This document shows positions 45,001 to 48,000 of a stretch of DNA of 64,000 bases, piece by piece. Made by a program: the position numbers. Location of the stretch: NCBI GenBank assembly GCA_963717525.1, contig OY970343.1, positions 160,001 through 224,000 on the forward strand, given 5' to 3'. Position 1 is the first letter of the stretch, and each line of letters begins with the position of its first letter. This stretch comes from an uncultured Methanoregulaceae archaeon (GTDB lineage: Archaea > Halobacteriota > Methanomicrobia > Methanomicrobiales > Methanospirillaceae).

Positions 45001-48000
45001 TTGTTATCCAAGAAAAAGAGAATCATTATTATCCCTTGTGGGGGGGGGGTCGATCCTTAGAGGTTGCTGCGCTTGAACTCCTCGACCTTCTGGATCAGGC
45101 TGTCAAGCTCATGATCTGTGATCTTAATCTTTCCTTCGATAGCATTGATCTCGGTCAGGAGCTGCCGGATACGGACATACATCAGGTACATGATGAACTG
45201 CTGGACAACGATCACTGCGCCGAATAATACCACCATGTAACTTTCAAATGCCATGTGTTCATTCCCGGCGTCCGGGCCCTTCTGATATACGGCTCTGCAA
45301 TCCGCCTACAACCCGCAGCACGTTCTCCTGTCTTGTAAGGCAGGTACAGTGTTTTTCTTCTTTTCCTATAACAGAATTTCCCTTCACCGGCCCGGATAAT
45401 GAAAAATCCCGGGGCTGTGAAATCCTGCGTGAGGCCATTTGTACGACTGTCCCACCAACTGCGATTATCCCACCCCGCTTACTGGTGTAAAAAAACCGGG
45501 ATTTTTATCGGGCCCGGTTTAATTACGGCAGAAGCGGGGTACACATTCTCCGGAACCAGTAGAGCTGGCGTTACTTTCCCGGTAAAGGGATAAATTGACC
45601 CGAAATAAAAAAGATATGTATATATGGTGTCACCAGTTATTATGAAATACAGCGGATAGTGCGCCACAGGAGCCACGGGCATGCTAAAGGATAAAATTGC
45701 GGCATTTGTCGAAAAAATACGAGCGGTCGAAGGGGTGACCGCATGCGCCCTTGTTTCACGTGATGGCATCATTGCCGGGAAATATTTTGACCGTGATCTT
45801 AACGAACCATGGTTTGGCGCTCTCGCTGCCACTATTCTTGCATCCGCTGAGTCGGCAGGAAATCTTATCGGCATGAAATCCCTCGGGACTGTCTCGATCT
45901 TCGGGGCAGATTCATCCATTCTTATCATGGGCGCAGGGGAGCATTTCCTTGTCGCCGCGCTCATAAAAGGCGGCGCACAGCAAAAAGATGCGTGTTTGCG
46001 GATTCATGCCCTCGCTGCAGAAATTGGGCAGGTGATGTAATTGTATACAATTCTTGTAGTGGATGACAGTCCCTTTATTGTCGATGTCTTTGTCACGATG
46101 CTTGAACGGGGGGGATACCGCACCGTGGCCGCATATGGCGGTGAGGAGTGTCTGGGGATCCTGAAAACCGTGACTCCGGATCTCATCCTCCTTGATATCA
46201 TGATGGAGCCGATGGACGGATGGGAGACGCTGGAGAAGATCAAGGAGAACCCGGCGACGAAGGATATCCCCGTGCTCATGCTCACGGCAAAACAGCTGAC
46301 CCCAACAGAGGCGGAGGAATATGGAATCTTTATCGAGGATTACGTCCTCAAGCCCATCACTCACCGTGAGCTTTACGATGCGATCGAGCATGTGCTCGGC
46401 CGGCGGCAGACCCTCAGGACCGACATGGACCGGGCCCGGCAATCCGGGGTTGATTTTGATATTGTCAACGAATACGCCCTGCTCTCGAAAAGCATTGATG
46501 TCAATAAACGCCTGATGAAGATCCTCGAAACGACCTACAATTTTAATGATTCAAAAATCCGGATCAGCGATGATATCTCACGGGCGTTAAAAAACATGGA
46601 TACCAACATCAAGTTCCAGGAAGCCCGGCTCCTGCAAATTAAAGGAGAACTGGCCGGGAAGATCCAGTGAGGGTTCACGCTGGGGGACAAAGAGCAACAC
46701 CAATAAACATTTGAATAATATTGCCCCCATCTAATAGTTATACGGCATTGGCTCCCTGCGCCTTTGGTAATTGATGTACCCTGCATGTAAATCCACGGAT
46801 GATGGAGATTTTGTATGAATGCGACTATCCTGATTGTTGACGATAGCCCGTTCATCGTGGATGGACTTGCGGCTATTCTTTCCCGTAAAGAGTACACACC
46901 CGTCTGTGCCAATGGTGGGGAAGAATGTCTTTCGATCCTCAAGACCGTGACTCCGGATCTTATCCTCCTTGACATCATGATGGAGCCGATGGACGGGTGG
47001 GAGACCCTTGAAAAGATCCGGGAGAACCCGGCCACAAAAGATATCCCGGTCCTGATGTTCTCGGCAAAGAAGATCACTCCTGCCGAAGCCCGGGAGCACA
47101 GCATGAGCATCGATGACTTTGTCTCAAAACCGGTAAGCCCCTCGCAGCTTCTTGAATCGATCCAACGGATTTTCTCCCGCAGGAACGAACTCCTGCTGGA
47201 ACGGCTTGCTGCACAGGACAAAGGTATTGACGCGGCGATGATCGATGAATATACTGCTCTCCGCAAAAATATCGAGGTCGACCGGAACCTGCTTGCAGTG
47301 CTGCGTGCATCGAGCGGGATGGACGTTCCCGGCCGCAATGTCCCCCATGAGGATGTCGATGCGATCCGGAACCTGGAAGATAAGGTATACAAAGAGAAAC
47401 AGCGGTTGCAAGAGATCCACATCCTGCTCGAAAAAATGCCCGAACTCATGCAGGGAAATTGAGTCCAGATAATTAGAGGTAACATTTAAATATTTTTCTT
47501 GCATTGTTATAATGCTGTACATCTTATTCCCGGGGTTCGTAACTCAGTTCGGTAGAGCGCCTGGCTTTTAACCAGGTGGTCGGGGGTTCAAATCCCTCCG
47601 GGCCCGTTACCACGACCAATCGTGGATTTTTTGCGGTGATGCATCTGAGAGGCAATCGTTTCAACTTTAAGGGGGTTTTTCATTGAGCACCAAACTGAAT
47701 GTGTTGAGCCACGTAATGGTGCCGGATCACCAGCTCATGAGCGAGGAGGAGGTATCAGCGCTGCTCTCCCGTTACCATATTACTACGGAACAATTACCAA
47801 AAATCTACCATGACGATCCTGCTGTAAAAGCGATCGACGCAAAAGTCGATGACGTTATACGGATTATCCGGAAGAGTCATACCGCCGGCAGGGCCGAAGC
47901 GTACCGACTTGTTATCAGGAGACCCAAAAAATAAGGGCCGGGGTTGGTCTATCTGATTGACAGAAGCGTTTTATCGAGGGCATACTTTGCACGGGAGCAT

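Follow-up and report, generated by a model that had tools for sequence, protein, structure and literature searches.

A roadblock gene coupled to the response regulator REC-MetOD2 in Methanomicrobiales, and its candidate partners

We know of no assigned output for most archaeal response regulators. A gene pair in a 64,000-nt stretch of contig OY970343.1 from an uncultured Methanoregulaceae archaeon (the window) raises the question for one of them: with which partners does REC-MetOD2, encoded directly behind a roadblock/LC7 gene that we call RB-A, do its work, and does that work involve DNA? The family (PF18548) has been reported from Methanomicrobiales and Methanocellales, with the tentative proposal that MetOD2 may be an HTH-like domain that binds DNA or RNA (Galperin et al. 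2018, PMC5847659); the accessible part of that paper mentions neither a roadblock nor a MinD neighbor of MetOD2. The genome-wide survey's note had instead placed MetOD2 in a roadblock/MinD positioning module reminiscent of RomR-MglB polarity control.

The RB-A and REC-MetOD2 gene pair

On the plus strand, the order is RB-A, REC-MetOD2 copy 1, copy 2, tRNA-Lys, and rpoH-rpoB (Table 1). Judged by its sequence matches, RB-A is an orphan MglB-family roadblock: its Robl_LC7 match scores 32.6 bits against a curated cutoff of 23, and the family profile matches roadblock structures of Asgard, Streptomyces, and, weakly, MglB. The RB-A copies form a single clade (SH-aLRT 99) found in 109 of the 151 genomes of the order; those at loci G005, G145, G028, G064, and G099 were found by HMM scan. 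A search with the RB-A alignment against proteins of 222 to 2000 aa returned no fused forms at E<=1e-12, which is weak evidence, and viral contigs held no RB-A relative.

Table 1. Features at the locus, in window coordinates (window position 1 is contig position 160,001)
Feature	Position	Strand	Evidence
ARMT1-like damage-control phosphatase	44005..44881	-	PF01937; HMM matches in two frames (gene split here)
tRNA-Pro(GGG), syntenic neighbor	44892..44965	-	ARAGORN
s68, small membrane/coiled-coil gene	45060..45257	-	Family HMM, 115 bits
Putative promoter: purine run and TATA-like element, ~60-70 nt 5' of RB-A	45607..45625	+	
RB-A, roadblock/LC7 (orphan MglB-family), 119 aa, with Asp28-Gly29	45681..46040	+	PF03259, E 6.5e-8
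REC-MetOD2 copy 1, 209 aa, TTG start	46041..46670	+	PF00072, E 3.7e-24; PF18548, E 3.8e-32
REC-MetOD2 copy 2, 215 aa, tandem paralog	46815..47462	+	PF00072, PF18548
tRNA-Lys(TTT), syntenic neighbor	47533..47606	+	ARAGORN
rpoH, first gene of RNA polymerase operon, syntenic neighbor	47683..47934	+	PF01191

REC-MetOD2 copy 1 has an intact phospho-acceptor site (D8, D9, D52, T82, K104); D8, D9, D52, and K104 are present in 59 of 59 family rows, as is T or S at position 82, and a solved REC domain (PDB 3C3M) is 76-77% identical. Copy 2 shares 46% identity with copy 1, and gene maps show such a tandem copy in genera g1, g3, and g9 and a truncated one in g7. MetOD2 is found in 121 of the 151 genomes, with none in the 21 searched in genus g22 or the 5 in g4, and it is present outside the order in family f14, with weaker matches in four further families; the survey's description of it as order-wide was therefore too strong.

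The DNA shows RB-A and REC-MetOD2 to be a translationally coupled unit of two genes. All 110 RB-A copies in the 151 genomes lie directly 5' of REC-MetOD2 on the same strand, 366-372 nt before the MetOD2 match, and the gap between the RB-A stop and the REC-MetOD2 start, which is 0 nt here, is -4 to +2 nt in 81 of the 84 measured. The coupling that the survey reported is thus real and stronger than it claimed. Its counts (a roadblock abutting in 20 of 23 loci, MinD-block genes within 1.5 kb in 18 of 23, the pair in 171 of 307 genomes) were not reproduced; our own equivalents are 84 of 94 main loci, 59 of 94 loci, and 109 of 121 MetOD2 genomes.

The linkage runs one way, in that RB-A depends on REC-MetOD2 and not the reverse. 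No RB-A genome lacks MetOD2 (0 of 109). RB-A is missing from 12 of the 121 MetOD2 genomes, and a roadblock is absent from all six secondary REC-MetOD2 loci fetched and from seven of seven loci in family f14, so MetOD2 works without RB-A. Outside the order, a REC gene with a weak MetOD2 match overlaps a roadblock downstream in genome G200, and REC-MetOD2 is convergent on a KaiC–roadblock–KaiC/MglA cluster beside a pilus ATPase in G183. A complex prediction for the RB-A dimer with REC-MetOD2, made with own alignments and with controls not folded, scored 0.12 against a mark of 0.32 and is counted neither way.

The survey had cautioned that part of the linkage may be synteny, and the whole region is indeed strongly syntenic across 94 loci: ARMT1, the most constant upstream neighbor and our synteny control, lies within 4.5 kb in 86 loci, and rpoH lies downstream in 77. 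The pair nevertheless outlasts this synteny, being kept after separation from rpoH in six genera (g2, g5, g6, g8, g10, and g11) and after loss of all neighbors in G033. In many genera, a convergent PsiE-family gene lies between REC and tRNA-Lys/rpoH, so that REC and the rpo operon have no transcript in common there. For this reason, and because six f1 genera lack the rpoH link, a connection to rpoH-B transcription was rejected. The putative promoter word also stands 5' of RB-A in 11 other g1/g3 loci, as judged by eye on unaligned stretches.

Candidate GTPases for RB-A

Lone MglB genes are tabulated for Methanoculleus, Methanoplanus, Methanosphaerula, and Methanospirillum, and lone Group 4 MglA proteins of 161-168 and 387 aa are listed as well (Wuichet and Sogaard-Andersen 2014, PMC4316618). 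In the available part of that paper, orphan MglB and Group 4 MglA are uncharacterized, no conserved neighbors of Group 4 mglA are found, and a tie of orphan MglB to REC-MetOD2 and a fusion GTPase goes unmentioned. GTPase genes of the genome studied here lie at contig positions 63026-64186 and 1640443-1640973, far from RB-A, and no mglA stands within four genes of mglB, the arrangement of a coupled MglA-MglB system. The stand-alone and fused GTPases carry a G1 P-loop, a G2 Thr without arginine finger, GTPGQ at G3, and NKxD at G4; by these motifs and by the lengths in the Wuichet tables, rather than by a tree, the candidate partner GTPases fit Group 4 MglA.

An orphan KaiC-like–MglA GTPase fusion occurs in 46 of the 151 genomes, all 46 of which carry RB-A. 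Of the stretches fetched around the fusion, 32 of 35 from outside the order contain a roadblock, as against 0 of 45 from within it. G102 and the three tested genomes of g16 have the fusion, with RB-A as their sole roadblock at E<=1e-5. Asp28 of RB-A, the MglA-facing member of an Asp-Gly pair that is present here (Gly in 69 of 69 rows, Asp in 49 of 69), is equivalent to a conserved MglB residue near Group 2-5 MglA, according to the part of Wuichet 2014 available (PMC4316618). All 36 rows from genomes with the fusion retain Asp28, against 13 of the 33 other rows, and changes at this position occur in 0 of 11 fusion-bearing genera versus 8 of 15 others, a comparison that was made after the co-occurrence was seen and that involves related, non-independent genomes. 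Columns L2, K3, and I30 of RB-A behave like Asp28.

Trees seeking the paralog closest to GTPase-coupled roadblocks disagree. RB-A groups with the roadblocks of G183 and G200 in one (SH-aLRT 91); a larger tree, in conflict with it, places the G183 roadblock with roadblock RB-B (90), and the grouping of RB-A and RB-B together has a p-AU of 0.61. The fusion-coupled-roadblock profile scores 42-81 bits for RB-A and 71-78 bits for RB-B. Across the 151 genomes, the presence of RB-A mismatches that of CheF in 12 and that of MinD in 29, with joint losses mostly in g22 and g4, which miss most of these genes together. From these distributions, we regard the KaiC-like–MglA fusion as a better candidate partner than MinD. 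Work by Makarova in 2017 on archaeal KaiC hubs may already have described a KaiC-GTPase fusion with roadblocks.

Our leading explanation, which as a whole stands just short of even confidence, is an archaeal MglB/response-regulator module tied to motility, each interaction of which we infer. REC-MetOD2 would be a phosphorylatable regulator whose output, a predicted long helical hairpin, serves protein contacts, and phosphorylation of REC would alter how MetOD2 holds or localizes the RB-A dimer. RB-A would in turn control a switch NTPase; in the ancestor this would have been the KaiC-like–MglA (Group 4) fusion, which appears to have lost its own adjoining roadblock in Methanomicrobiales. The output would be where motility structures are placed or how active they are (archaellum/chemotaxis, perhaps type IV pili). 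Counting against this explanation, 63 of the 109 RB-A genomes lack the fusion, and the pair persists in G053, G086, and G138 although both MinD and the fusion are absent, with no full MglA-like match found in G053 or G086. In addition, RB-A is acidic, with a median net charge of -4, and MetOD2 is close to neutral (median +1, range -4 to +10), whereas RomR-C, which binds MglC, is acidic.

A distributed Mgl-like polarity switch would carry this explanation further, and is possible though rather improbable. REC-MetOD2 would be an independently evolved analogue of RomR that, when phosphorylated, recruits RB-A, which would regulate the KaiC-fused Group 4 MglA and, via further roadblocks, a membrane-anchored MinD/PATAN-like complex placing archaella, chemosensory arrays, and type IV pili. 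The likeness to Myxococcus RomR/MglC/MglB/MglA (Carreira et al. 2023, PMC10329633) lies in a REC protein with a helical C-terminus, roadblocks, and a GTPase of the MglA family, all in an organism whose motility machinery includes pili. Unlike in the Myxococcus module, the GTPase and roadblock genes are unlinked here, and the GTPases are of the GTPGQ type (Group 4) and lack the Group 1 arginine, one of them being fused to a KaiC-like domain. RomR shares its N-terminal REC domain with REC-MetOD2, but it also has a disordered linker and an acidic, Glu-rich helical C-terminus, both of which REC-MetOD2 lacks as judged by pLDDT and charge. The survey's comparison with RomR-MglB gains from the orphan Group-4-type MglA genes, but REC-MetOD2 is not a RomR homolog.

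The MinD block

The MinD block consists of a PATAN-like gene, a membrane-anchored roadblock, MinD, and s68. In this genome it was found apart from the pair, as the survey had stated, at contig positions 237308-239495, opposite a second roadblock and the locus of a type IV pilus ATPase; the ATPase of the block is minD_arch (TIGR01969, 315 bits against a cutoff of 201.75). In relatives, s68 is usually the last gene of the block, after MinD; here it is stranded without MinD, and it fits the description of arCOG07447, "associated with arCOG00589" (Makarova et al. 2016, PMC4858521). The same paper finds FleN/MinD (arCOG00589) and roadblocks (arCOG02603, 02605, 03412) often in T4P loci, already calls the membrane protein of the block a roadblock, and gives the s68-MinD-roadblock-REC order for Methanoculleus marisnigri as raw rows in its Table S4. 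Its main text leaves the roadblock-REC coupling undiscussed, the terms "response regulator," "CheY," and "receiver" being absent. In the accessible part of the Dip divisome paper (PMC13228585), roadblock, MglB, and response regulator do not occur. Compared as profiles, the membrane-anchored roadblock and RB-A show no significant match (probability 2%); a fold search, with 3KYE as its match (Z 9.8, rmsd 3.2, 99 aligned), decided the roadblock identity of the membrane protein. The first block gene matches PatA_N/DUF4388 below cutoff in 12 of 21 members (best E 0.0015), with Atlas leads to DUF2226 (0.89) and PatA_N (0.86).

RB-A and REC-MetOD2 might serve as the regulatory side of a MinD positioning module, encoded back-to-back with it over a common divergent promoter, a model that we consider unlikely. 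Of the 84 RB-A loci, 52 have a block gene no more than 1.5 kb away, and the survey's statement that the pair is divergent from the block in most families is borne out in four of six (f2 10/10, f3 9/9, f4 18/21, f5 15/16) but not in f1 (7/30) or f6 (0/8), and f2 keeps the roadblock in just 3 of its 10 loci. Many genomes have two MinD and two roadblock paralogs; in g1, a different MinD paralog now adjoins RB-A (100/98 support) as a replacement, and the original block faces the second roadblock and pilus genes. Further points in favor are the roadblock fold within the block itself, a MinD 550 nt from a MetOD2-like regulator at L134 in one genome outside the order, and Haloferax MinD4, which positions motility machinery according to the accessible part of its description (bioRxiv 2020.04.03.021790). 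However, adjacency to the block (59 of 94 loci) is lower than that of the unrelated ARMT1 and rpoH, which makes the MinD linkage weaker than claimed. A minD_arch match is present in 96 of the 109 RB-A genomes and absent from 13, another 16 genomes have MinD without RB-A, and g12, g19, and g24 of f2 retain the block and REC-MetOD2 although RB-A is gone. MinD is therefore not an obligatory partner, and of the proposed roadblock/MinD module it is the roadblock tie that holds. The block is probably the ancestral neighbor of the pair and comes from the same pool of roadblock, NTPase, and pilus genes, but the pair does not require it as a partner.

The MetOD2 output domain

In an HTH, short helices pack into a compact bundle that has a tight turn. 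Family and architecture here are those described by Galperin et al., but in the present AF2 model (pLDDT 87.7, nowhere a segment under 50) MetOD2 forms long helices at residues 108-134, 139-165, and 177-208; the latter two, of 27 and 32 residues, do not suit a compact HTH. Among the Pfam matches listed for 59 REC-MetOD2 members (25 of 43 families), no HTH family appears. Fold searches with the full model covered residues 1-130 only, their matches all being REC domains, and an Atlas search with MetOD2 alone returned nothing usable. The predicted helices make a role in transcription less likely, as the survey had held, and the earlier suggestion of HTH-like binding was itself tentative. The coupling to a roadblock gene hints that REC-MetOD2 may steer motility machinery via protein contacts, not DNA binding.

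It is also doubtful that the two genes are passengers of a common operon that act separately, with MetOD2 as a nucleic-acid-binding or self-associating output. ARMT1 and rpoH are conserved nearby without evident functional tie, REC-MetOD2 persists and duplicates without RB-A, and conserved basic residues of MetOD2 include R121, K150, and R196. Against this, RB-A is never apart from REC-MetOD2, even when relocated, the long predicted helices misfit a compact HTH, and the convergent PsiE-family gene cuts REC off from tRNA-Lys/rpoH in many genera. Very unlikely is a conservon-like input, in which RB-A would influence either a histidine kinase or the phosphorylation of REC and relay GTPase state to REC-MetOD2: actinobacterial conservons (CvnA kinase, CvnB roadblock, CvnC, CvnD GTPase) likewise tie a roadblock and a GTPGQ-type GTPase to two-component signaling, with interactions among CvnB, CvnA, and CvnD described for Streptomyces (PMC4316618, available part), the one-way dependence of RB-A would suit an optional input, and 6 of the 35 outside loci have REC genes near the fusion–roadblock cluster, but the partner gene of RB-A is a response regulator, kinase, CvnC, and GTPase are absent at the locus, and across the 94 gene maps no histidine kinase or CvnC-like cluster recurs and no cognate kinase was identified.

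With the MglB/response-regulator module as the leading explanation, the output domain MetOD2 gains a candidate partner, and the orphan roadblock RB-A gains a candidate GTPase and a test residue, Asp28. Polarity control by roadblocks and small GTPases is known from Myxococcus and is echoed in the eukaryotic Ragulator. If the explanation is true, such control would extend to methanogens and be joined there to two-component signaling, and the polarity-switch reading, if true, would mean that, in an archaeon, the output of a two-component system acts on a small-GTPase switch.

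The RB-A and REC-MetOD2 gene pair

The roadblock/LC7 gene RB-A, an orphan MglB-family member, precedes a response regulator that joins a REC domain to the MetOD2 output domain (PF18548). The same genome, in which the closest named relatives of one protein are Methanoregula and Methanoregulaceae records (84% identity), carries a third REC-MetOD2 and two more roadblock matches elsewhere.

Features of the locus and MglA-type GTPase genes of the same genome
Feature	Position	Strand
tRNA-Pro	window 44892-44965	minus
ARMT1-like gene, split	window 44005-44881	minus
s68, 65-codon membrane/coiled-coil gene	window 45060-45257	minus
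RB-A, roadblock/LC7	window 45681-46040	plus
REC-MetOD2, 0-nt gap after RB-A	window 46041-46670	plus
Second REC-MetOD2	window 46815-47462	plus
tRNA-Lys, then rpoH-rpoB-rpoA	window, downstream of second REC-MetOD2	plus
Stand-alone MglA-type GTPase	contig 1640443-1640973	
KaiC-like–MglA fusion	contig 63026-64186	

Besides ARMT1, rpoB'' and rpoA' (window 47944-49513 and 51335-53975) and a PATAN-like gene and PATAN-roadblock fusion (fetched locus L001, 8787-9496 and 10477-11218) are split over two frames; relatives have single ORFs, and the splits are probably assembly indel errors. A 6-phosphofructokinase-family gene (window 42733-43788) lies within the syntenic block of some g1 genomes.

Among 151 Methanomicrobiales genomes (completeness ≥85%), MetOD2 was found in 121 and RB-A in 109. 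Each of the 110 RB-A copies has a co-oriented MetOD2 match 366 to 372 nt downstream, with one REC domain between them, so the coupling claimed by the genome-wide survey's note is real and, seen from the roadblock, near absolute. MetOD2 stands alone in 12 genomes and RB-A in none, a one-way dependence. We regard as unlikely the reading in which the two are independent passengers. We compared 94 main loci, one per genome, from the 121 MetOD2 genomes (100 fetched order stretches, minus 6 secondary-paralog loci and 1 duplicate, plus the window). RB-A adjoins REC in 84, with gaps of -1 (39 loci), -4 (24), 0 (7), +2 (6), +1 (5), -6 (2), and -26 nt (1). Such short or overlapping gaps are the pattern of translational coupling. 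The pair is intact after leaving rpoH in six genera (g2, g5, g6, g8, g10, and g11), and in genome G033 every neighbor has changed with the pair still together. No roadblock was found at the six fetched secondary REC-MetOD2 loci. In G046, a duplication approximately 15.7 kb apart (L073, L074) repeats RB-A, REC-MetOD2, and rpoH, the second copy with a truncated MinD.

MetOD2 matches outside the order occurred in families f14 (7/10), f9 (4/4), f17 (1/4), f27 (2/2), and f28 (2/2). Across 19 outside loci, a roadblock overlaps the regulator's end in G200 (weak MetOD2 match, E 6e-4, under the cutoff), REC-MetOD2 in G183 is convergent with a KaiC-roadblock-KaiC/MglA cluster that lies next to a pilus ATPase, and MinD lies 550 nt from the regulator in G318; neither roadblock nor MinD was found at the remaining loci, including 7/7 from f14, several being cut by contig ends. 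Translations place an Ech-like hydrogenase operon upstream of REC-MetOD2 in f14 (L122-L128), with roadblock and MinD not nearby.

The MinD block and its paralogs

Four genes make up the full MinD block: one resembling PATAN/DUF2226 (weak matches), one for a membrane protein with a roadblock fold in its C-terminal domain (roadblocks were the top four fold-search hits; Z 9.8, rmsd 3.2, 99 aligned), minD_arch (TIGR01969), and s68. In neighbor counts that include truncated loci, 59 of 94 loci have a block gene ≤1.5 kb upstream, as do 52 of the 84 with RB-A (by family, f2 10/10, f3 9/9, f4 18/21, f5 15/16, f1 7/30, f6 0/8). Because the unrelated ARMT1 lies ≤4.5 kb away in 86/94 loci and rpoH downstream in 77/94, synteny alone can give MinD adjacency. 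MinD and roadblocks have been noted in T4P loci, and the present gene order appears as raw table rows in the same study, with no discussion of the regulator (Makarova 2016, PMC4858521); PATAN genes near MglB have also been noted (Wuichet 2014, PMC4316618).

Many genomes have two MinD paralogs, the second accompanied by RB-B (a second roadblock paralog) and a PATAN-like–roadblock fusion, plus PilB-TadC-TadC in some cases and a NiFe-hydrogenase operon in others. The block of this genome (contig 237308-239495) faces RB-B, the PATAN-like–roadblock fusion, and PilB-TadC-TadC. A tree was built from 53 MinD sequences, of which 32 were REC-linked and chosen from the loci and 21 were others. The copy of this genome clusters with further pilus-linked copies from f1 and a single REC-linked copy from a full block (96/95), nested in a less well supported clade of REC-linked blocks from f2/f3 (85/77); the g1 MinD adjoining RB-A groups with f2/f3 pilus-operon copies (100/98). 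These placements make it plausible that the block lies apart here, as had been claimed, and indicate that MinD paralogs have swapped places.

No minD_arch match at E ≤1e-55 was found in 13/109 RB-A genomes (eight in genus g16, plus G053, G059, G086, G102, and G138), and MinD was below the cutoff in 5/5 of those retested at E ≤0.001; 16 genomes have MinD without RB-A. The proposed tie to MinD is probably an ancestral neighborhood, possibly with functional meaning, and is not a requirement. A MinD-centered model, which adjacency would favor and the 13 genomes would not, is improbable.

In 12 loci (L103-L110, L112, L113, L115, L116), a NiFe-hydrogenase set with ferredoxin and a V4R-like gene leads directly into RB-B and the PATAN-like fusion; in f2/f3, MinD, PilB, and two TadC genes follow in the same direction. 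The arrangement may point to pili receiving H2 or redox input. In G028 (L070 8412-8842), the MinD linked to REC is broken into four fragments and the RB-A/REC-MetOD2 pair is intact. Two genes, one with a V4R domain and one for a REC-PAS regulator, are convergent with the MinD block of this genome (L001 5120-7260); REC-PAS occupies the same position in G078.

Candidate GTPase partner and motility genes

The two MglA-type GTPases are unlinked, and both have GTPGQ and NKxD motifs; lone MglB and Group 4 MglA genes are listed for these genera (Wuichet 2014, PMC4316618). The fusion occurs in 46/151 genomes, all RB-A-positive, versus 0/42 RB-A-negative genomes (genus-level p ~0.04, overstated by kinship). 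Counting against the fusion as partner, it is missing in 63 RB-A genomes, three of them also without MinD. Stand-alone MglA does not track RB-A among 73 chosen genomes, being present in 5/5 g4 and 5/5 g12 genomes tested, none of which has RB-A.

Of 176 genome-collection fusion loci, the best 80 were compared, and the fetched stretch held a roadblock in 32/35 outside the order versus 0/45 inside; with 1.5-kb flanks, 2/6 f9 loci did. The fusion stands with one to three roadblocks (L201-L235) in Woesearchaeota, Micrarchaeota, Altiarchaeota, Thermoplasmatota, Bathyarchaeota, Methanosarcinales, Methanocellaceae, and a single record labeled as bacterial; REC or PilB genes are sometimes close by. Also counting against a partnership, trees placed RB-A no nearer the fusion-coupled roadblocks than RB-B. 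A DUF7504/DUF7090 KaiC-like gene precedes the fusion GTPase in 3/3 order loci read (here L143 5206-7187, contig 62205-64186).

MglBs of Group 2-5 systems share one conserved Asp-Gly pair, the Asp near MglA (Wuichet 2014, PMC4316618). RB-A keeps this Asp in 36/36 alignment rows from fusion-bearing genomes versus 13/33 others, and it is changed in 0/11 fusion-bearing genera versus 8/15 others (Fisher p 0.007, with kin not independent), a comparison made after the co-occurrence was seen and in which three other columns behave alike.

CheF is present in 113/151 genomes. Both RB-A and CheF are present in 105 genomes, only RB-A in 4, only CheF in 8, and neither in 34 (much of this class being one genus, g22, with 21 genomes), giving 12 mismatches compared with 29 for RB-A/MinD and 18 for MetOD2/CheF. 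CheF and RB-A are both missing from genera g12 and g24, which keep REC-MetOD2 and the MinD block.

MetOD2 fold and a possible mechanism

MetOD2 was defined with a possible HTH suggested (Galperin 2018, PMC5847659). Our AF2 model of REC-MetOD2 (59 sequences, pLDDT 87.7) predicts an extended REC helix 5 (108-134), followed by two helices (27 and 32 residues) that flank a lower-confidence loop of 11 residues, an arrangement we read as a helical hairpin. The REC phospho-acceptor site is invariant. Given the long modeled helices, a net charge near neutral, and no HTH family among the Pfam matches listed, nucleic-acid binding by MetOD2 is less likely.

We found no discussion of the roadblock-REC-MetOD2 coupling in the open-access papers searched. 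Related precedents are the RomR/MglC/MglB model (Carreira 2023, PMC10329633), positioning of motility machinery by Haloferax MinD4 (10.1101/2020.04.03.021790), and the reported binding of the pilus motor by PATAN regulators (10.1101/2021.06.11.447907). We consider a conservon-like input by RB-A less likely still than the MinD-centered or passenger readings. From the observed coupling, domain identities, and co-occurrence patterns, we tentatively favor, at slightly under an even chance, a reading in which MetOD2 would contact RB-A and RB-A would regulate the MglA fusion or MinD. The system belongs to neither the RomR family nor the coupled MglAB family; it would work like a dispersed version of an Mgl-type module, whose output may be the placement or control of motility structures.
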